64,000 nucleotides of DNA from Eledone cirrhosa (taxonomy: Eukaryota): positions 52,452,001 to 52,516,000 of the forward strand of contig OZ024745.1 in the NCBI GenBank assembly GCA_964016885.1. The letters run 5' to 3'. A program made the position numbers and the translations under genes. The notes under the pieces were generated by a model. It saw nothing but the letters and a program-made list of their open reading frames with translations, was not told the DNA's origin and ran no database searches. Shown here in pieces: positions 7,269-55,068 of the stretch (positions are counted from its first letter, which is position 1; every line of letters begins with the position of its first letter).

Positions 7269-7864
7269 TATATATATATGGAGGAGGTTATAGTTCACTT
7301 GAAGCATTGTGTAATGAGGTATAAACGTTTGAATATGTATAATAAAGCCAAAAGAATGCAGGTATGGACATAGAAAAAATAATGCAATTGCAAAAGATAT
7401 TGTTGACAATTCGTCTTTTACCTTAGATTTATTTTAAACGTCCTTAATTTTCGAGATAATATCTCTTCTTCAGAGGGAAATAAAGGTCTCAAACCAGCGT
7501 TCTAAATATCTTGCCAAGCCATGCTGACAGGAAATAGTATAGAGTATCTGTTCTATCTCTAATGACAAAGAGTTAAGGTTAGGTGGATAAAGAGTAGTCT
7601 CCCTTTAAAAAGGGTTTGTTTGACGGTTTTTTTTAAAATATACATGCCTGTTTAAGTGTGTGGGAGAATGCATGAAGGTGTAAGTATGTGAGTGTGTGTG
7701 AGTGTGAGAAGATAAGTTTATTCGTAAATGTTGGTGATAGGTGTTATCTGGTGTTAGAACTGATTTTGTGTGTGTATGTGTGAGAGAGAATAAGTGGAGG
7801 TATAAGCGTGTGTGTGTGTGCGTGTGTGTGTATGGGGTGTGTAAATATGGGGCTAGAAGCCCTA

Positions 7865-8989
7865 TCAGGTTATGAATTGGGTGTTGAGTTCTAGTCTATT
7901 ATTGATAGGTGGTAGTGTTTTATCTATAATTAGTGCTTCCTTAATTCTAAGATTGCCGTGGTTTCTTTCCTTAGTTTCTATCCTAACTGTTATGGTTTTG
8001 TCGGTGTTTTTGCATTTAACTAGGTGTTTCTTAAATGAGGAAGCGTTAGCATTGAGGTGTTCTTTTATTCTTATGTGGAGTGGTCTGGTGGTGCTACCTA
8101 CGTAGAAGTTGTTGCATTTGTCACACTCTAGTCTGTATACGACGTAAGCCTGGTGGCATAGGTATGTGTCGTTGATGGGGCAGTTGGCTAGTCTGCAGCA
8201 GTTGTCATGTCTGGTGGAGTGTCTTTTAGCTAGCTGTCCGCGCAGAGAAGGACCTGAGTGGGCCAGTTGGATATCTAGTCCTTCTCGTCTGATGGCTCTG
8301 CGGATGGCTGTTGTTGTTTCTTCACTGAAGTGTGGGAGCTTCAGGAAGCAAGTCTTAGTGCCTCGGGTGTGGTGTCCTCTGTTCTTTCTGACACGGTTTG
8401 TGGTGGATGTCGTGTATCCGTTCAGTTTGAGTACTTCCAGGAAATGTGTGGTGTGTGTGTCTCTGTCTCTAACGTCGGTGCATTTGTTCTGGATACGTGC
8501 CAGTTCGTTCCTTATGTATCCGAACTTGGCACCGAGTGGGAGGGCCGATCTGAAATGTACGAACAGGTCCCTGCTGGCGGCTTTTTTATAGAAGCAGGTG
8601 TGGATGTTGCCTTCCTCTGTTACCCTGAGTTGGAAGTCCAGTAGGGATAGGGACCCACGGTCATCGGGGTGTTGCATGCTGAACTTTATACTGGCGTCCA
8701 TGCTGGAGAATGTTGTGTATATTTTATCTGGCTCCTCACAGGATGTTGTGAGGATGAGTATGTCATCTACATATCGGGTGAAGAAGGCATGGGAATGACA
8801 GGTGTTGAGGGCTCGGCATTCTAGCTGGTTCATGTAGGTGATGGCCAGCAGGCCCGATAGGTTGGATCCCATGGGTAATCCTGTTGTCTGCCTATATGGG
8901 TGATGGTGGAAGGTTAAGTACGTGTTGTCTACTGTGAAGGACAAAAGCTGGTGTATGTCCGTCGGGTGGAGGCCGTAGCAGTGGATGTC
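7865..8989 (-). pseudogene. PLE RT C-terminal half plus GIY-YIG endonuclease (possibly Naiad-like)
   Basis: GLPMGSNLSGLLA, RYVDD, LSLLDF, then Cys-rich linker and VVYRLECDKCNNFYVGSTTRPLHIRIKEH ... LRIKEALII..P.IN; lacks N-terminus in this orientation. Confidence 0.92.
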
Positions 8990-9450
8990 TTAAGCGACAA
9001 TGAATTATACACAAGATCCCGGACATGACTGCAGCCCAGATCGAAAAACAGACCAACTCCATTTGGTTCGATATCTGTAGGAGAAGACAACTCCCAAATA
9101 AAGTTAAGCTCAACTACACCACTAGAAAAAGCAGACTGCCCACTTTCTACCACCTCATCAAGACCCACAAGAATAGCACTAAGACGCAAATAAGACCCAT
9201 CGTCTCTAGCATAGAAGGACCCCTATACACAATTTCCTGGCTCCTCTCCCAGGTCCTCAAGCCTCTACTATCCACCTTTCCCGGGCATGTCAGTAGCTCC
9301 GACGAAGTTATACGTAGACTACACCAACTCCAGCCAGAACAACTTAAACTAAATAAATACGCTTTTAGACTCGACGTTGTCTCACTCTACACTACAGTCA
9401 CCGCTCATCCAGCTGTCGATTTATTGATGGACTGCGTGGTCGCAGAGGAC
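8990..9450 (+). pseudogene. Inverted upstream segment of the same PLE RT
   Basis: LPTFYHLIKTHK, IRPIVSS, LDVVSLYT motifs; ends ...DCVVAED, which continues as DIHCYGLHPTDIHQLLSFTVDN on the minus strand from 8989. Confidence 0.9.
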
Positions 9451-9900
9451 AGCACTAATTATAGATAAAACACTACCACCTATCAATAATATACTAGAAC
9501 TAAACATCGAATTTATAACCTGATAGGGCTTCTAGCCCCATATTTACACACCCCATACACACACACGCACTCACACACGCACGCCTCCACTTATTCTCTC
9601 TCACACATACACACACAAAACCAGTTCTAACACCAGATAACACCTATCCCCCACATTTACGAGTAGACTTATCTTCTCACACACGCACACACACTCACAT
9701 ACTTACACCTTCATGCATTCTCCCACACACTTAAACAGGCATGTATATTTTAAAAAAACCGTCAAACAAACCCCTTTTAAAGGGAGACTACTCTTTATCC
9801 ACCTAACCTTAACTCTTTGACATTAGAGATAGAACAGATACTCTATACTATTTCCTGTCAGCATGGCTTGGCAAGATATTTAGAACGCTGGTTTGAGACC

Positions 9901-9957
9901 TTTATTTCCCTCTGAAGAAGAGATATTATCTCGAAAATTAAGGACGTTTAAAATAAA
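9901..9957 (+). ncRNA. Minimal type I hammerhead-like motif (inverted copy near 7428-7484)
   Basis: cct-CTGAAGA-a-GAGAT att ATCTC-GAAA-ATTA-agg; distal tttattt/aaataaa pairing; stem III reduced to palindromic AATT. Confidence 0.6.
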
Positions 9958-10058
9958 TCTAAGGTAAAAGACGAATTGTCAACAACATCTTTTGCAATTG
10001 CATTATTTTTTCTATGTCCATACCTGCATTGTTTTGGCCTTATTATACATATTCAAAC

Positions 10059-10100
<42 letters not shown>

Positions 10101-10105
<5 letters not shown>

Positions 10106-11377
10106 TAGTATATTTACCAACATATGCGTACATATGTACACTAATGCCAGCAAATACATAAGTTATGTCATAGTACCTAGGTATTTCTATGCAGGGGGAT
10201 GCAGAACAACTATATGAAAGACGTAAAATAAGAAAATTTTAAAAATTAAAATTAACATACTTACTAAAATTTTCACTCCAACTAATTAGTTTCTGTAATG
10301 GGATAAATATAGTTACGCAATGTAACTATCGAGAATTCATTACGTCATCAGGGAGTCTATTCTCAGCTAAGTCCCCAGGCAATGCGCGGACACTAGGAAC
10401 TCATATAAAAATAATAATTCGGTGGATGGAACAGCTAGCGGGGACTGAATTCCATAGCACTGAAAAAGTTCACTGTCTCTGGTCAAGTGGCAGATTCTAA
10501 AGAATCAATCATGTGACACTGAGGCTAGTCAGTAGGAGTGGGGTGGTATTATGACAAGAGCCTACTACCACTACTATGAATTACCAGTGGATTTTGCAAG
10601 TTTGCTCAACAAATAAATAATTTGGAGATAAATATAGAGAATTAGTATATTTACCAACATATGCGTACATATGTACACTGATGCTAGCAAATACATAAGT
10701 TATGTCAGAGTACCTAGGTGGTTCTATGCAGGGGGATGCAGAACAATTATATGAAAGACGTAAAATAAGAAAATAAAAAAAATTAAAATTTACTTACTTA
10801 CTAAAATTTTCACTCCAACTAATTAGTTTCTGTAATGGGATAAATATAGTTACGCAATGTAACTATCGCGAATTCATTACGTCATCAGGGATTCTATTCT
10901 CAGCTAAGTCCCCAGGCAATGCGCGGACACTAGGAACTCATATAAAAATAATAATTCGGTGGATGGCACAGCTAGCGGGGACTGAATTCCATAGCACTGA
11001 AAAAGTTCACTGTCTCTGGTCAAGTGGCAGATTCTAAAGAATCAATCACGTGACACTGAGGCTAGTCAGTAGGAGTGGGGTTGTATTATGACAAGAGCCT
11101 ACTCCCACTACTATGAATTAGCAGTGGATTTGGCAAGTTTGCTCAACAAATAAATAATTTGGAGATAAATATAGAGAATTAGTATATTTACCAACATATG
11201 CGTACAGATGTACACTAATGCTAGCAAATACATAAGTTATGTTATAGTACCTAGGTGGTTCTATGCAAGGGGATGCAGAACAATTATATGAAAGACGTAA
11301 AATAAGAAAATTTTAAAAATTTAAAATTAATTTACTTATTAATTTTTAAAATTTTCTTATTTTACGTCTTTCATATA
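10101..11377 (-). mobile_element. ORF-less 537-bp tandem repeat (about 2.3 units) with one HHR per unit and terminal inversion; retrozyme-like or tandem pLTR
   Basis: Unit starts at 10101, 10638, 11175; HHR on minus strand in each full unit; 11286-11377 folds back; abuts (AT)n. Confidence 0.8.
10275..10356 (-). ncRNA. Type I hammerhead ribozyme (second copy 10812-10893)
   Basis: ACTCC-CTGATGA-cGTAATG...CATTACa-GAAAC-TAATTA-GTT-GGAGT: stem I 5 bp, stem II 6 bp, palindromic stem III, GUU site. Confidence 0.85.
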
Positions 11378-16270: not shown

Positions 16271-17506
<1,236 letters not shown>

Positions 17507-34110: not shown

Positions 34111-35600
34111 TTGAAGACAAAAATCCAAAGAGGGCTCGATAAGGATAAATATATATCGAATATATAAGAACCGTAGAGCAAATATTTATTAAATAACAGA
34201 TTAATGTTTAAGCAAAGAATCGCTGCTTTCACCCTTAACGGGATCTTCTGAAACTAATAAAGGCAATCTGTAAACGCAGAACTGGATTTTTCAAAAAACG
34301 TTGCAACCGGAGGAAGACAGGAAGACGATACTTTGGTTCGTGGTAACGTTCGCTGGCAAAGAACGGGGGAAAACGAATAATACGTCATTAATAGGAGCGG
34401 CGAAAAACAATTACGCGCAAAGACAGAACCACGTTTATGGTATAAAAGAGGTCGTAGACTAATGTTCTCTTAGGTGGTGCATAGAGACGTTCTCTGGCAA
34501 TGAAAGAAAAAACGAAGATAATACATCATATGTGGAGCGTGGAGAACAATAGCACGCAAAGACAAAACCACATAAATGGTATAGCAGAAGTCGTAGACTA
34601 AAATTCTAACTAGGAGACCAAATGAATCTCCGCTACAGAGTTAAGAACACAGTAAATAAATACAATACAGAAGTAATAGAAATAAATATATACCTACACG
34701 CAAACAAATACATACATACACAAGCATACGCAAAACCTTACCATAGGTATACAAAACCACGCACATATAAATATGTGTGTGTGTTTGCATGCTTGTGTAC
34801 AAATAAATAAATAATTATATAAACGTATATAAGTTAATAAATACGTATATAACAAGCGCACATACATACCCACATATAAATACACGAATGTTCGGAGACG
34901 TAAATCAACTAAAACAAGAGGTACACATATACACACACCCACCATACGTACGAACCTGCATACTCACGCAGACGCAAAACTCCCGTTTATTATAGCATAC
35001 ATACACACATATTTATATGTGCGTGGTTTTGTATACCTATGGTAAGGTTTTGCGTATGCTTGTGTATGTATGTATTTGTTTGCGTGTACGTATTTATTTA
35101 TTTCTATTACTTCTGTATTGTATTTATTTACTTTCTTCTTAACTCTGTAGCGGATATTCATTTGATCTCCTAGTTAGAATTTAATCTACAACTTCTGCTA
35201 TACCATTTACGTGGTTTTGTCTTTGCGTGCTATTGTTCTCAACGCTCCACATATGACGTATTATCTTCGTTTTTTTGTTCATTGCCATAGAACGTCTCTA
35301 TGCACCACCTAAGAGAACATTAGTCTACGACCTCTTTTATACCATAAACGTGGTTCTGTCTTTGCGCGTAATTGTTTTTCACCGCTCCTATTAATGACGT
35401 ATTATTCGTTTTTTCCCGTTCTTTGCCAGCGAACGTTACCACGAACCAAAGTATCGTCTTCCTGTCTTCCTCCGGTTGCAACGTTTTTTGAAATATCCAG
35501 TTCTGCGTTTACAGATTGAATTTGTTAGTTTCAGAAGATCCCGTTAAGGGTGAAAGCAGCGATTCTTTGCTTAAACTTTAATCTGTTATTTAATAAATAT
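34111..35600. mobile_element. Large fold-back PLE pLTR (family C), about 600-bp arms
   Basis: 34183-34780 reverse-complements about 35003-35599 with scattered mismatches; (AT)n flanks; no ORF. Confidence 0.85.
35511..35586 (+). ncRNA. Hammerhead-like motif with variant core CAGAAGA
   Basis: AGTTT-CAGAAGA-tCCC gttaa GGGt-GAAA-GCAG..TTGC-TT-AAACT, distal ACAGATT/AATCTGT pairing; the CAGAAGA core is also in the opposite arm and at 3443-3449. Confidence 0.6.
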
Positions 35601-39930: not shown

Positions 39931-41208
39931 TTATGACCTCGTTGAGGGCAGCATGGCGTGGAAGGCGGCCGGCACTGTGGGCATGAGAGAGCGGGTGGAG
40001 GCCGAAAGAGTCCATGGTGGATCCGCAGCGATATCGGTGTGGACGCAGATCCGGAGGCCGAGCCTCAGGGAAACGCCGATGCGCAGGTCATTGTTGTCTT
40101 GCTGCGTACCAGTGGAGAAAGAGGACAGGGCATGGAGCCAGGCACCACTGTGGGGTTTGGAGGACGCACGAAAGCAGGTCGAGCTGGCTCGTGAACCTGT
40201 CTGATGCCAGGCTGCACTGGATGGCATCCCAAGTGCTTTGGGGGAACTTGATGTCAACATGGGGAGGAGGAGGGACGTGTACTGGGCTAAGTTAAAGCCG
40301 GTTCCACGTCTCACAGGTGGTCTCACGTTCTCTAAAAAAGTGGGTTCTATTGTGTTTTGAAGAACCCGGCTGACCAGGACGCGGCACGAGCTTACCGACG
40401 AAACATTTGCGCGTAAAGCCAGCGAGATCGAGGACCGGAAGCCAAGGCCACCATACCTGACAGGTAAAGTGGCTTGTTGCCATCCAATGTCTTCAAACTT
40501 GACGTTGCATATCTCCTCGGCTGCTGCTCGGATACAAGTATCAAGGTCAACGAGGAGAGATGTCTGGGTGTAGCACGGAGCAATGCGAAGTGTACAGAGG
40601 AGCTTCAGCATGGCGAAGCAGTTCCTTAACAGAAAGAGAGCTGGGTGGCCGTCAATCAAGCCCAGTCGGCTCGAAGAAGTCTGGAGCTGTTGAAGCCTGG
40701 ACCTGATGGTGGAGCGGATGGCCAGCGGGAGGATTAGTGAACCGAGGATGAGGATATCCTCTTTGGGGGTCACCTGTACCTGGTGGAGAATGGACCGTAC
40801 GTCCGAGACGGAGGCTGCAAAGCTCTCAGCGTCGTGGCTGACATTCACCACCTCCGACATGGCCGAGTTGACCTGGAAGCCGATTCCCGCCAGAGCAGGA
40901 ACCACCGATTGAAGGTCATGGCAGAAAGTCTGTACGGGCCCGCCCAACGTAGCATCATCCATATACCAAACGTTAAGAGGGGTTATGATACTCCGGACGA
41001 TGTGGTCTATTATAGCAAGGGCAAACAGGAGGGGTCCCAAAGGGTCGCCCTGTTGGACCCCAGTAGCCGAACGTATGACAGTATCAGCAGCAAGGACCAT
41101 GATAGGGGCTCCATAAGACAGGTAAACCAGCGGGTAGGTAGAGGGGGCTCGGCTGGGGCAGTCATTGAGCAGATGGTCCCCGCGCAAGCAGTTGAAGGCA
41201 TTATTCAT
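39931..41208 (-). pseudogene. Reverse transcriptase domain of CRE-like element
   Basis: QGDPLGP and YMDD motifs; flanking parts in other frames. Confidence 0.88.
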
Positions 41209-41949
41209 GTCAAGCTTGACAATGACGTGGCTTCAGCGGAGGAGGGAATAGCAACTCCTTGAGGTGGGCTGGTCAGAGACCATCAGCACCTCCGCTGCTG
41301 CTAGCTGGGAAGGACTTGATGGCAGACATGATGTCTGCGTCGGAGCCACAAGGAGCAAGTTGGGTTTGGGTTGGGTATTCGGTATGAGATCAGCGGGTGG
41401 GTCAGGATGTTTGAGTCCCAGGGCAGCTAGGACATCCTCGGTGAGTTGGAGGACAGTGTCCTCTGAGTCAACCATTGTGACTGCGGCCGAGACATCAACC
41501 ATGATTCGTTTAGCATTTACCCGGTCACGCAAACGCTTGGCGCTGGCCTCGGCGATGGAGAATTAGAGGTACCCGGGGGTGGGGAGTGCGGCGTTCCTGG
41601 GCACGCTTGGAATGGGCATTTGCCCAAAGGACGAAACATTAGCCTTGACTAAGCCTTCTGTTGACCGGGCGCCCTGGTCAGCGCCAGAGCTGGGGATGCC
41701 GAGGGCGAGTGGGGCGAAATAAACGAGTCGCTTCTCGTCGCTGGCTCGATTAGAGTCCAGGGCTCTCTCAATCGAGGAAGTGAGGATATCGGCTACCGGC
41801 ACCCGGGCCGCTTTTCGGATCCTGAGTGGGACCTTCCGGAGACGCCTGAGCCGAGCAATGTTGACCAGCGACGCTTGGGCGACGGGAAGGCTCGCTGTCT
41901 CATCCGGTAATGTGTCAGACGGTCGTGGCTGGGCAGACGAGTGGAAGAG

Positions 41950-44746: not shown

Positions 44747-44782
<36 letters not shown>

Positions 44783-44784
<2 letters not shown>

Positions 44785-45391
44785 AGAAATTAGAAATTAT
44801 AAGCTTTCACCGTATTTTAGACTAAAGAAATTTCTAGCCTGATAGTGGGGTTTATAATCCTCGGAGAAATGGAAAAAGATGAATGTTACCGTACATGGGA
44901 GTCGAACCCACATATTTGGTTATCCAGACCACTGTGCTACCATTACACCAATATTTCTCCAAGGGTTATAAACCCCACTATCAGACTACAAATTTCTTTA
45001 GTCCAAAATACGGTGAAAGCTTATAATTTCTAATTTCTAATTTCAAACTCGCGCACCGTTTCAAAAACATACTTACATGTTTACGTTTATAATTTGCTTG
45101 TTTATCATTCACTTGCTAAGTACATAGCTTCTAATTCGAATGGAAGGAGACGGGATGTGTATTGGTGTAATGGTAGCACAGTGGTCAGGATAACCAAGGA
45201 TGTGGGTTCGACTCCCATGTACGGCAACACTCATCTTTTTCTATTTCTCCGAGTGTTATAAACCCCAGTATCAGGCTAGAAATTTCTTTAGTCTAAAATA
45301 CTGTGAAAGCTCATAATTTCTGATTTCTAATTTCAAACTCGCGCACTGTTTCAAAAACATACTTACATGGTTACGTTTATAATTTGCTTGT
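44783..45391. mobile_element. Inverted plus tandem about 290-bp unit carrying a tRNA-like sequence
   Basis: Minus arm 44783-44953; plus direct repeats 44953-45101 and 45243-45391; (AT)n flanks. Confidence 0.75.
45156..45226 (+). other. tRNA-like cloverleaf (inverted copy 44887-44953), probably not a functional tRNA
   Basis: A-box TGGTGTAATGG, D stem GTG/CAC, TGGT/ACCA anticodon stem with 7-nt loop, T arm GTGGG-TTCGACT-CCCAT, TTTTT at 45236-45240; acceptor stem poor. Confidence 0.75.
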
Positions 45392-45417
45392 ATATATATA
45401 TATGTGTATATATATAT

Positions 45418-45783
45418 ATAGAAGGATTTTAATGGATACAGTTTAGTTAAAAGGAATTTATTGACACGTGTTTCTATAACAGTTACATAACCTGAAAACA
45501 GCTGCTATCTACAAAGTATTAGTTATGCAGACATTCAATATTTCAATGTTATTATCAACTGTCATTTCATCGGAATAATTTTACTGAGGACCTGTTTGTT
45601 TTTATAGAGAATATTAGGAGGGAGGGGTGAAGTTGTTAGAAGAATAGTTGAGGGAGTGGTTTTTTGATAGCAGTGAGAATTTTTGGTGGCAGTGAGTAAT
45701 TAGATTGCCATCTGTTGTTTTGAGCAATATAATATTTATATTACAACAATATAATATTTATATTACAACACTACAGAAAATAC

Positions 45784-48860: not shown

Positions 48861-49483
48861 ACGCTTACAAATACAAATAATAATAGTAGGAGGGGGGGAG
48901 GGGGGATTATAGTAAATATAGGTTTCAAGAAACATAGAATATTAATCTGCATTTAGATCATAATATGTGTTTACATATTGTTATACTTTGGGAGGGTCAT
49001 GTTGCCAATAAGAAACACACGCACCAGTTGCTTTCACTTCAATTTAATTTATTATATATTTATAAATTTACAAATTTATAAATTTCTGGTTGGTTGGTTG
49101 GTTCCACAACCAGATAGTTGTTTATATATATATAGTCATAGTTCTTTCGTCACACACTCTGTGACCTCTTCAGTGACTGGGGATTTCTTTCTTCGTTTCT
49201 GTGCCTTTCTTTTCTTCTATCCTACGCCATTTTGTTTGTGTGTGGGTTGCGTGCTCAGTTTGCGCATGCGCCACATCCGGGTGTCTGTGTGTGTTTGTGT
49301 TCATTTTTCTATTTTTCTATTTATATTTTTCTATTTGTTTGTTTATTTATTTATTTATTGTTGGTTGGTTGTTTGTTCTATGTGTGTGTGTGTTTTCATT
49401 TTGTCTTGTGTGTGTTTTCATTTTGTGTGTGTTTTCAATTGTAAGTTGTTTGTTCTATGTGTGTGTGTGTTTTCATTTTGTCC

Positions 49484-50267
49484 TTAATTGTAAGTTGTGA
49501 TGTTGCTGTTCCACTCATATTTTCTATTTAATTTTGGTTTTAATTCTTTTATGCTTACTGCCTCTGTAATTTGCCTAAACATTGCGTCTTTCTTGTGTGT
49601 GGATTCTATTTTTATTTCTATGCTCTCTAATTTACCCCTGTGTTCTATCTTAGCATGTTGGTAGAGCACAGATGATTCTTTATTATCTTGGAGGTCTCGC
49701 CAGTGTTCATTTATTCGTTCCCCTATACTACGAGCTGTCTCACCTATGTACACTATATTTTTGTTTCTACATTGTCCTTCAGTACATCTTATGCTATATA
49801 CTACATTTCTAGTTTTACAGTTAATATGGGGGCTTATTTTACAGGTTATACATTTCTTATCTATACATGAGGGTCTTTGGAACGGGTATGTCTTGCTAAT
49901 AAGTGTTTTTACGGAGGTACCAGGTCTTTCTACTATCTTAATATTGAGATTATGTTTCTTTAGGGCCCTTCTAAATTTGTAGGCTAGTTCGCCTCTAGGG
50001 GTTGTATTGATGAACATTACACTCTGGTATTTATTGCTATCATACCATGAGTTTATTCTATTGGCCTTGTTCTTAGTTCTTTCTATTCTATTCCAAAATT
50101 TGCTCCTATACAAGGCGCAGGTCCCATTTATGTCATTATCTACCATTTTTTCCCATTTGGTTCTGGCTCCTTTATATACTCTGATTCTATCTCTCTGATT
50201 GTAGCCAGAGAACTGCATACGGTGGATGAAGTGTTGTATGTGTCTCTCTAGTTCTTCGGGGTTGCAC
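49484..50267 (-). pseudogene. PLE post-RT region and GIY-YIG endonuclease, 5'-truncated
   Basis: SGY, LYRSKFW, C-x4-C-x2-C linker, NVVYSIRC, YIGETARSIGERINEH, RQITEAV, LNRK.EW. Confidence 0.9.
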
Positions 50268-51058
50268 CTGGCTACAATCAGAGAGATAGAATCAGAGTGT
50301 ATAAAGGAGCCAGAAGCAAATGGGAAAAAATGGTAAATAATGACATAAATGGGACCTGCCCCTTGTATAGGAGCAAATTTTGGAATAGAATAGAAAGAAC
50401 TAAGAACATGGCCAATAGAATAAACTCATGGTATGATAGCAATAAATACCAGAGTGTAATGTTCATCAATACAACCCCTAGAGGCGAACTAGCCTACAAA
50501 TTTAGAAGGGCCCTAAAGAAACATAATCTCAATATTAAGATAGTAGAAAGACCTGGTACCTCCGTAAAAACACTTATTAGCAAGACATACCCGTTCCAAA
50601 GACCCTCATGTATAGATAAGAAATGTATAACCTGTAAAATAAGCCCCCATATTAACTGTAAAACTAGAAATGTAGTATATAGCATAAGATGTATTGAAGG
50701 ACAATGTAGAAACAAAAATATAGTGTACATAGGTGAGACAGCTCGTAGTATAGGGGAACGAATAAATGAACACTGGCGAGACCTCCAAGATAATAAAAAA
50801 TCATCTGTGCTCTACCAACATGCTAAGATAGAACACAGGGGTAAATTAGAGAGCATAGAAATAAAAATAGAATCCACACACAAGAAAGACGCAATGTTTA
50901 GGCAAATTACAGAGGCAGTAAGCATAAAAGAATTAAAACCAAAATTAAATAGAAAATATGAGTGGAACAGCAACATCACAACTTACAATAAAGGACAAAA
51001 TGAAAACACACACACACATAGAACAAACAATTTACAATTGAAAACACACACAAAATGA
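50268..51058 (+). pseudogene. Second copy of PLE GIY-YIG region
   Basis: Near-identical to the minus copy; stop codon differs. Confidence 0.9.
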
Positions 51059-51298
51059 AAACACACACAAGACAAAATGAAAAAAACACACACACATAGA
51101 ACAAACAACCAACCAACAATAAATAAATAAATAAACAAACAAATAGAAAAATATAAATAGAAAAATAGAAAAATGAACACAAACACACACAGACACCCGG
51201 ATGTGGCGCATGCGCAAACTGAGCACGCAACCCACACACAAACAAAATGGCGTAAGATAGAAGAAAAGAAAGGCACAGAAACGAAGAAAGAAATCCCC

Positions 51299-51343
51299 AG
51301 TCACTGAAGAGGTCACAAAGTGTGTGACGAAAGAACTATGACT
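51299..51343 (+). ncRNA. Minimal type I hammerhead (inverted copy 49134-49178)
   Basis: AGTCA-CTGAAGA-gGTCACA..TGTGAC-GAAA-GAA-CTA-TGACT. Confidence 0.85.
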
Positions 51344-52021
51344 ATATATATATAAACAACTATCTGGTTGTGGAACCAACCAACCAACCAGAAATTTATA
51401 AATTTGTAAATTTATAAATATATAATAAATTAAATTGAAGTGAAAGCAACTGATGCGTGTGTTTCTTATTGGCAACATGACCCTCCCAAAGTATAACAAT
51501 ATCGGTTTCAACACACGATTTCAGATAAAGAATCTTGCTAAACAAATTCAGAAACGAAATGTGTTTACATAGTTTCAGTATTAGGAAATGTAAGAAAGAA
51601 GGCAAAATTATGCATTTCAATATAATTATACCATTAACCATAGGTTAACTAAATTAAGGATAGTTAATATATTGATTTCTAAGGTGTATACTACTTAGGT
51701 TTATAATGTTTGAAGCGGAATTTTGAAGTTAAATAGTAGTAGAGTATTAATAATAGTATAACTAAATTAAAATTATTAACGTTATGGTATCAATATTAGG
51801 AAATGAAATTTAGTAATAGGGAAAAAACAAATAAAGTATTTTGGCAAGCGTATGCATGTGAACATATATCTTTATGCATATCTGTGAACGAAGTTACTTA
51901 TGTGCATATATATACACACACCTAACTGTATAAACTTTTTGTATTTTCATTGGTCAATTTGAACTCTGTTCCCAAACAGACCTGTAATTTTGAATTGTTG
52001 TTATTATCAATAAATATATTC

Positions 52022-54360: not shown

Positions 54361-54448
54361 ATTCAGTATTCAGTATTCAAAAACAAGAGAAATCAACACC
54401 GAGGATGAAATAACTAATTATATAATGACGAGTATTTTGGAAAATCTA

Positions 54449-54524
54449 CCTAGATTTAAAATATACACAAATATAATTTATTTTACATTAAATAATTTAT
54501 TTTCGTAGTGCATTCTAAATTTCC

Positions 54525-54562
<38 letters not shown>

Positions 54563-54786
54563 CACTATGGGCTTATCTTCAATTGTGTAGTATTATTTTC
54601 CCTATAAAATTCATAGGATAGCATGAAGGTCAAATCTACCAACAATCCTTACAAATTGATGGATATTTGAGTTCAAATCCTGCCGAGGTTAACTTTGCCT
54701 TTCATCCTTACCTAGATTTAAAATATACACAAATATAATTTATTTTACATTAAATAATTTATTTTCGTAGTGCATTCTAAATTTCC

Positions 54787-54846
<60 letters not shown>

Positions 54847-55068
54847 CACTATCGGCTTATCTTCAAATGTGTAGTATTATTTTCCCTCTAAAATTCATAG
54901 AATAGCATGAAGGTCAAATCTACCAACAATCCTTACATATTGATCGATATTTGAGTTCAAATCCTGCCGAGGTTAACTTTGCCTTTCATCCTTACGGGGG
55001 TCGATAAAATAAAGTACCAGTAATACACTGGGTAATTGCTGGCCTTGTGCCAAAAGTAGAAACAATTA
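54449..55068 (+). repeat. Tandem duplication joining (AT)n, a PLE RT piece and a Nin-core SINE
   Basis: 54449-54709 repeats at 54710-54993; SINE body continues to 55068. Confidence 0.8.

Follow-up and report, generated by a model that had tools for sequence, protein, structure and literature searches.

The window analysed here, 64,000 nucleotides of Eledone cirrhosa DNA, carries at 44783-45391 a repeat laid out as one inverted arm and 1.5 direct units of 290 bp between two TA tracts. Positions in the 290-bp unit are numbered from q1 at 45106. The features of the locus, and of one separate insertion further along the window, are:

44747..44782, no strand: left (TA)n target; (TA)3 is present at this side in 54/66 position-sampled loci.
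44783..44953, minus strand: inverted arm, q55-225; the inner start site forms its outer end, and the tail of ~60 nt is consequently missing.
44895..44950, minus strand: the inverted arm's tRNA-like module, whose CTGGATA loop (44921-44927) is intact; Rfam RF00005, 35.8 bits.
44952..45105, plus strand: 5'-truncated direct unit, q137-290, abutting the next unit without a TA spacer.
45106..45391, plus strand: full family-A unit, period 290, with 11 substitutions, none of them present in more than 3 of 37 aligned units.
45139..45155, plus strand: leader strand of a helix extending the acceptor stem, predicted to pair with 45229-45245, with A-U/G-U exchanges between subfamilies.
45156..45226, plus strand: tRNA mimic, positions 1-73; A box (45163-45173) as in host tRNA-Gln, B box at 45205-45215.
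45186..45192, plus strand: loop 32-38 at the anticodon position; predicted cut between 37 and 38 (45191 and 45192); the family CTGG is broken by T>A at 45187.
45211, plus strand: A58 in a GTTCGA T-loop; copies end just 3' of it.
45229..45245, plus strand: trailer strand of the clamp helix, including a run of five T (T5, 45236-45240).
45252..45293, plus strand: two hairpins, GGGTT/AACCC and GGCTA/TAGTC, kept across subfamilies with variable loops.
45300..45349, plus strand: helix ACGGTG/CACCGT, damaged here and intact at 45010-45059, indicated by U-A/C-G covariation, fold and ends; its loop contains inner start sites 45324 and 45331, and it is likely a region bound by the PLE protein.
45332..45391, plus strand: Penelope-type (PLE) tail, bounded by the inner and terminal start sites.
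45389/45391..45419, no strand: right (TA)n target; (TA)3 here in 60/66 loci, poly(A) in 0/66.
50252..51559, plus strand: truncated Neptune-type PLE, a separate insertion with its inner end at ~51500 and a 60-nt tail to 51559; its family is fused elsewhere to sister-family arms.

An earlier sequence-only reading of the locus had described much of this layout, and its inverted arm (44783-44953 against 45160-45330, 171 nt, 93% identity), its direct repeats of about 290 bp (44952-45105 and 45242-45395, at a spacing of 290), its (AT)n flanks (TA tracts at 44747-44781 and 45389-45419) and the absence of a CTGANGA core from either strand of 44783-45391 were all recovered. The tRNA-like fold that it proposed is matched by Rfam RF00005 in the inverted arm, above the cut-off of 29 bits; ARAGORN called no tRNA gene in the window. 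The T5 that it took for a terminator is present, but that role is not established because the T run lies within the conserved leader/trailer helix and is disrupted in subfamily D.

Other repeats share the window. A hammerhead-bearing repeat adjoins the element in the same TA tract (45391-45723), its core reading CCGATGA on the minus strand, and has matches at 16585-16914 and 17047-17349. A PLE with reverse transcriptase and GIY-YIG matches in Pfam lies inside a 620-bp inverted repeat at 7320-10065, a non-LTR reverse transcriptase ORF fragment (Pfam RVT_1, below the cut-off) occupies 39931-41232 on the minus strand, and further tandem or inverted repeats with periods of ~537, 600 and 284 bp are found at 10091-11342, 34182-35600 and 54447-54995. 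Within the element, a frame of ~74 codons without a stop (45096-45320, plus strand), read by eye in the family sequence, crosses the unit junction from the tail through the tRNA module; it is probably due to chance.

The window locus is one decayed copy of an abundant non-coding, ribozyme-free repeat. A search of the 3.0-Gb genome with the unit returned 1946 candidates, 40 of which were scored, and a 26-nt motif from the family-A tail has 953 exact matches genome-wide (234 forward, 719 reverse); a family-B tail motif has 1050, a variant of ~271 bp included, and both reversed controls gave 0. The genome-wide copy number that the sequence-only reading had wanted established is that of hundreds of dispersed loci and an array of more than 220 kb, and neither outcome that it had set against its own proposal was encountered: the repeat is no single-copy local rearrangement of a SINE, and no LINE-type tail is seen, poly(A) being present in none of the 66 sampled loci. 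The array, in which family A runs on the minus strand of contig C28, starts at 19,440,624, continues as far as 19,663,000 or further and is no longer present at 19,720,001, which fits the reverse-strand excess of the tail motif. It is satellite-like (L061-L068, L378-L380; at least 222 kb), with higher-order repeats of ~13 and ~20 units, and its left end, read by eye, abuts Helitron-like sequence.

At least five sister subfamilies (B, B271, C, D and E) share the tRNA module. Unit lengths are 290 nt in A, 269 in B, ~271 in B271 and ~260 in E; C and D are older subfamilies, and the 72-nt modules of B and E differ at positions 33 and 34 only. Rare variants are shared by units within one insertion in 16/222 cases, as against 31/11723 between loci, a pattern that is suggestive of circular monomer templates but could also follow from a homogeneous parent or from gene conversion. 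Two contig sets from one sample repeat the known family variants and nothing further.

Insertion ends were compared in a position sample from contigs C1 and C2, for which 70 loci were fetched, 4 duplicates skipped and 66 kept; end counts refer to 65 loci, L149 being left out for having no motif after orientation, and three duplicates were skipped for family B. An inverted arm is present in 34/65 loci, and the direct arm is longer than one unit in 9/65. Half of the inverted arms (17/34) end at q219 or q226 and none (0/34) at the long end near q286. The tail between the two start sites measures 60-67 nt in family A and 38 nt in family B, with the same end pattern, and the inner start site lies in the loop of a helix that shows a U-A/C-G exchange between subfamilies. 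Tandem junctions are seamless, with neither TA spacer nor tail. One locus, L153, has a possible 9-bp target duplication. The same layout of partial tandems, inverted 5' arm and one-ended tail is described for PLEs (PMC8557442), and the tail of PAc is the stretch between two internal reverse transcription start sites in a stem-loop (PMC11167929). The element has the structure of a non-autonomous PLE derivative (partial tandems, inverted truncated copies, a one-ended tail and a microsatellite target); it is not an ordinary head-first SINE, and its tRNA sits inside a circularly permuted unit. That a non-autonomous, tRNA-bearing element is moved by PLE machinery, as the earlier reading had suggested, is well supported by the ends, the inverted arms, the TA targets and the composite insertions described below, and we regard it as very probable. 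A PLE sharing its 3' tail, which that reading had proposed to look for, did not emerge: there was no sequence match in the window or in 30 of 10596 GIY-YIG candidate loci, a small sample in which few families predominate.

Three independent composite insertions point to a likely partner. In a screen of 235 loci (some overlapping) with PLE proteins, each of these three was found to link an arm of B or E to a PLE ORF of Neptune type without a TA spacer, and in all three one outer end is the long end and the other the inner start. In L082 an inverted B arm with the long end meets a PLE arm ending at the inner site, a form that the L042/L066 composite resembles, and in L363 a PLE arm that has the long end faces an inverted E arm that has the short one; no direct PLE fusion was found for family A in the same 235 loci. 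The three composite ORFs belong to two related families, longer copies of which have a C-x4-C-x2-C linker ahead of the GIY-YIG motif. That linker is tied to Neptune, with Nematis sharing the motif (PMC8557442), and the assignment to Neptune is by linker motif, not by tree. The copy at 50252-51559 is of the same PLE family as those in L082 and L363, and a Neptune-type PLE is probably the partner of the element. The surrounding insertion (48957-51559), a truncated PLE of Neptune type, comprises inverted and direct arms and a 60-nt tail and has hammerhead cores at 49173 (minus) and 51304 (plus); its family is likely the partner family. The Neptune 3' end folds into a helix around the inner start like that of the element, but with a z of 0.84 this is given little weight.

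The module itself is a tRNA mimic. Its A box is identical to that of host tRNA-Gln genes, with 47-48 of 76 aligned columns identical overall, and the older subfamilies keep the host Gln D-loop length; a full cloverleaf with a 7-bp acceptor stem is present in B, C and E. Pairing in all four stems and the leader/trailer helix is kept in 90.9% of 704 cells, against 40-46% in slid controls, a figure favoured by the structure having been derived from the same sequences. A canonical anticodon loop has an invariant U33 and a purine at 37; in the module, position 33 is T, C, G or A according to subfamily and 37 is mostly T. A bacterial or phage origin of the tRNA was considered from 7 bacterial and 44 viral pattern matches and rejected: the six bacterial ones shown are ordinary tRNA-Gly-type genes, and the resemblance is convergence, because only the D and T arms match and the older subfamilies have the host Gln D-loop. 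Elsewhere in the genome, contig C1 (168211720-168275586, L230-L248) holds a cluster of more than 30 tRNA-Gln-like genes, some of whose repeats have a CTA anticodon (labelled Pyl by ARAGORN) and are probably decayed Gln copies or suppressor-like.

Many copies break at one point of this mimic. A58 corresponds to q106, and the 5' end falls at q106-116 in 25/65 direct arms and at q107-113 in 15/34 inverted arms; 25 of the 43 arms that reach q116 stop by q106, just 3' of A58, whereas ten other TA-like sites collect 0-3 ends each. Family B shows a weaker form of the pattern, with 9/20 inverted arms at +5 to +13. B copies starting near tRNA +1 make up 8/26 loci in a set biased that way, as against 2/27 direct arms when sampled by position. 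TRMT6/61A is described as methylating GUUCRA T-loop hairpins outside tRNA, with m1A truncating cDNA (bioRxiv 10.1101/202747), and judging from where the arms end it is fairly probable that m1A58 makes the cDNA stop, although a fixed RNA 5' end at position 59 would give the same break pattern. Misincorporation at A58 was seen in none of 37 A and 25 B units. Subfamily C, whose B box is without A58 and which has yet moved, offers 6 matches for comparison, too few.

A further feature of the module is the loop at the anticodon position. From position 32 to 38 it is CTGGATA in subfamilies A and B; B271 has CCGGATA, E has CGCGATA, C has CATGATA and D has CCGGCAA. Host Gln loops read CTCT/CTTT. The tetramer at 32-35 is self-complementary in every one of the six subfamilies (CUGG, CCGG, CGCG, CAUG). 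A fixed pattern searched genome-wide gave 931 matches with T33-G34 and 610 without T33; the first 100 listed of the latter comprise, by hand count, 52 CCGG, 34 CGCG, 1 CATG, 2 CGTG and 11 others, and no subfamily with non-pairing 33 and 34 appeared among the matches listed, 510 of the 610 lying outside them. T33 with a base other than G34 gave 25 matches, 13 of them the pairing CTAG, and a similar pattern without C32 gave 38; both sets are scattered and form no subfamily. In L006 (contig C4:231537068 and 231537358) two neighbouring tandem units are both without C32, through different substitutions. The pair 33/34 takes four pair types, pairs in 13/13 rows and gives the strongest covariation of 55 named pairs, a result that depends on about three independent changes among six related subfamilies, with a rough chance, by our own estimate, of 0.01-0.1. 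Since adjacent bases 33 and 34 cannot pair within one hairpin, the partner must be another unit, and from these patterns it is likely that the tetramers 32-35 pair between units.

Such pairing would have a particular geometry. A bulge-helix-bulge between units is possible in all six subfamilies, with a 4-bp helix of 32-35, 3-nt bulges and a C-G proximal pair. Among 15 tandem pairs found, 9 were evaluable, and in all 7 with intact tetramers the swapped folds lie 1.8-3.8 kcal/mol below the side-by-side ones, whether started at -5 or -10. In the broken-loop pair L005 the swapped fold is about equal to or worse than the side-by-side one; the other broken-loop pair, L062, also favours the swap at -5, and the control is not clean. 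Unconstrained minimum-energy folds lie 6-28 kcal/mol below both constrained forms, with a C32-G35' probability of 0.00-0.01, and a single unit folds no better than shuffles (z -0.97).

The account proposed here, which taken as a whole we consider evenly poised between right and wrong, is of a ribozyme-free tRNA-mimic repeat copied by a Neptune-type PLE from circles made by host tRNA splicing. A tandem locus with two modules would be transcribed, probably by Pol III using the A and B boxes and reading through T5. As the covariation suggests, two successive units, n and n+1, would then build a permuted tRNA, the 3' half of the former pairing with the 5' half of the latter and the leader/trailer helix assisting, with 32-35 against 35'-32', positions 36-38 bulged on both strands and C32-G35 as the proximal pair. 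TSEN would cut both bonds between 37 and 38, a double cut that would release exactly one unit with hammerhead-like end chemistry, and RtcB would join the ends into a seamless one-unit circle, the same product as a hammerhead gives in retrozymes. TRMT6/61A would methylate A58. The PLE protein, as the presumed enzyme, would nick both strands of a TA tract and start cDNA at the two internal sites, q219/226 and q286; in keeping with the observed ends, most cDNAs would end at A58 and become joined to the target or to one another, frequently at a neighbouring CATG palindrome, and read-through would yield partial tandems. In the window copy, one module is direct and the other inverted, and with the direct loop broken it could not have formed the bulge-helix-bulge in cis under this splicing model and is likely a dead end.

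Metazoan tricRNA formation by TSEN and RtcB requires a C-G proximal pair and a 3-nt bulge (PMC6614914), and related features of metazoan tRNA splicing and tricRNAs are given in PMC10485636. A tandem pre-tRNA that folds as a permuted tRNA and is cut in vitro by an archaeal enzyme is cited in PMC3978253, where type II permuted tRNAs are said to pass through a circle, and retrozyme monomers are closed by RtcB (PMC7229834). Some observations count against the model. Strengthening of the helix lowers splicing (PMC6614914), and the CCGG and CGCG tetramers are all G-C; T5 should stop Pol III within the first unit; and the C28 array could supply linear multimers without circles. That TSEN and RtcB circularise unit-length RNA is for these purposes a working model, to which we give slightly less than even confidence; somewhat more tentative still is the wider proposal that the lineage replaced its ribozyme by a host-enzyme signal, with TSEN and RtcB circles copied in rolling-circle fashion by the Neptune-type enzyme. 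The 'tRNA-processed' character suggested by the sequence-only reading may hold, with the sequence favouring a splicing endonuclease acting at the anticodon loop over a terminator or RNase P/Z.

The main rival is a kissing dimer without cleavage. The element would be the same PLE passenger, with a tRNA module that serves as Pol III promoter only and a loop that drives RNA dimers (kissing or as an extended duplex); the dimers would feed a two-primer PLE reaction, and tandems would come from read-through transcripts or template jumps. This accounts equally well for the covariation of 33 and 34 and would suit the two arms seen in 34/65 loci. Anticodon-anticodon pairing, however, uses the 34-36 side, whereas a palindrome at 32-35 followed by three free bases is the TSEN register, and in the composites the partner of the element is a PLE RNA without a loop of this kind. 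A dimer is also predicted for PAc (PMC11167929), and PLE hammerheads dimerise by palindromic loops (PMC6765202). We hold the dimer to be unlikely, though not negligibly so.

A lower probability still, small enough that we would be surprised by it, attaches to the same PLE passenger arising from linear read-through transcripts, made by Pol III or by Pol II over tandems and the C28 array, with the loop palindrome incidental and the tRNA module a promoter relic. The A and B boxes are intact, some B copies do start near tRNA +1 (the 8/26 of the biased set and 2/27 of the position sample), long multimers are available from the array, and few independent changes back the covariation; yet both double substitutions (GC, AT) land on pairing states, no single-step non-pairing subfamily appears among the 225 listed of 1566 pattern matches, and subfamily C has moved with a B box lacking A58.

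RNase P and/or RNase Z might instead monomerise tandem transcripts at the tRNA ends, where these enzymes cut in MALAT1/mascRNA. The full cloverleaf with its 7-bp acceptor stem in B, C and E would permit this, and a few ends do fall near +1 and at q119-125, but the main break is at A58 rather than at either end of the tRNA, the acceptor stem is prolonged by the leader/trailer helix, and cutting at both ends would remove the module from the template; we find this very improbable. More improbable again is an ordinary LINE-driven tRNA SINE with local rearrangement, already refuted for most copies: the tRNA-Gln-derived A box, the 5' truncations and the possible target duplication at L153 would agree with it, but the tandem junctions are without any tail, the 3' part is present again in the inverted arms, which stop at a fixed inner site, poly(A) is absent (0/66), and arms are fused to PLE ORFs.

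The sequence-only reading had also seen, after the tRNA, a resemblance to a hammerhead stem II and a minimal stem III. The hairpin CAGTAT/ATACTG that it took for stem II requires G45268 and T45302, found together in 1/37 aligned units, the window copy alone; for the GAAAGCT(C/T) taken as stem III, the C of GAAAGCTC (45312) occurs in 2/37 and GAAA is not conserved, GAAAGCT being read in A and E, with GATA at this position in B and GGAA in C. In the family the bases preceding GAAA pair forward with 45344-45349, not back with CAGTAT, and the 97 Rfam matches obtained in four loci with E values up to 5 include no ribozyme family. The hammerhead remnant is not real, because its stem rests on private substitutions, GAAA is variable and no Rfam ribozyme is matched. 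A look-alike CTGATAG...GAAA on the minus strand was rejected, as subfamily C reads CTAATAG. Descent of the element from a hammerhead retrozyme, with stem II, GAAA and a minimal stem III surviving the acquisition of a tRNA insert, is largely refuted and has next to no probability: its layout does resemble that of the hammerhead elements of the same window and GAAAGCT occurs in A and E, but its stem hangs on those two substitutions, B and C have GATA or GGAA, and the Rfam matches contain no ribozyme.

As read from the subfamily sequences, what is new here is the self-complementarity of loop bases 32-35 across all six. In the literature covered, mostly titles and the openings of abstracts with Repbase and Dfam outside it, no published tRNA-bearing, ribozyme-free PLE passenger or TSEN-circularised retroelement was found; many unclassified SINEs are counted in an octopus (PMC13282606), and an entry for the repeat, labelled as a SINE or as unknown, may already exist, possibly in the supplements of that paper or of PMC8557442. 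With this element the non-autonomous Penelope passengers gain a branch that has a tRNA mimic and no ribozyme. The composites show that two arms of one PLE insertion can derive from different RNAs, one per start site, a point relevant to the origin of inverted pLTRs and tails. If the splicing model is true, a mobile element parasitises tRNA splicing and a natural permuted-tRNA pathway exists in an animal, and TSEN and RtcB acting between 37 and 38 would be a ribozyme-free route to circular selfish RNA and a non-tRNA substrate of animal TSEN; according to a 2023 review, human mRNA targets of TSEN were not known (PMC10485636). If the m1A58 stop is true, the A58 break point is an RNA modification recorded in genomic DNA.

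Compared with known systems, the element is not a SINE2, a Helenus element or a tRNA gene. It has tRNA-derived A and B boxes, as SINE2 elements do, without their fixed 5' tRNA and LINE-type 3' tail. With Helenus (tRNA-bearing TRIMs) and tRNA SINEs it shares the nature of a non-autonomous retroelement with an internal tRNA-derived promoter (PMC10886601), and unlike them it has no LTR, primer-binding site, polypurine tract, fixed 4-5 bp duplication or LINE tail; retention of a tRNA fold is not reported for Helenus. Helenus, TRIMp3 and Ajax were rejected as identities for want of LTR features, the element having seamless junctions, TA flanks and inverted arms instead. Animal non-LTR retrozymes are likewise short non-coding tandem units, proposed to be non-autonomous PLE derivatives (PMC7229834; PMC7761336), and the unit lengths given above fall within the 170-400 nt of retrozymes. 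Their own circular RNA is closed by RtcB and reverse transcribed by rolling circle (PMC7229834; PMC7761336; bioRxiv 10.64898/2026.07.22.740005), whereas the circles of the present element are predicted only, and it has no type I hammerhead in each unit, carrying instead a tRNA mimic with a self-complementary loop.

In Schistosoma Sm-alpha and Sj-alpha, too, the tandem unit contains a Pol III promoter, transcription of one unit requires another upstream of it, and multimers are cut to monomers (PMC6765202); the cutting is by a hammerhead, which the present element does not have, and it keeps a whole cloverleaf. EN+ PLEs and MRC1-like derivatives share with it the partial tandems, inverted 5' arm, one-ended tail, two internal start sites in a stem-loop and microsatellite targets (PMC8557442; PMC11167929), and differ in that the element has no ORF, a tail of 60-67 nt (A) or 38 nt (B), a tRNA module and no sequence match to PLE ends. 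Finally, tricRNAs and type II permuted tRNAs resemble it in the bulge-helix-bulge at 37/38 predicted here, the C-G proximal pair and the order of TSEN, then RtcB, then a circle (PMC6614914, PMC10485636, PMC3978253). The motif of the present element would form only between two repeat units, however, and its circle would be the template of a retrotransposon rather than a by-product or a tRNA precursor.
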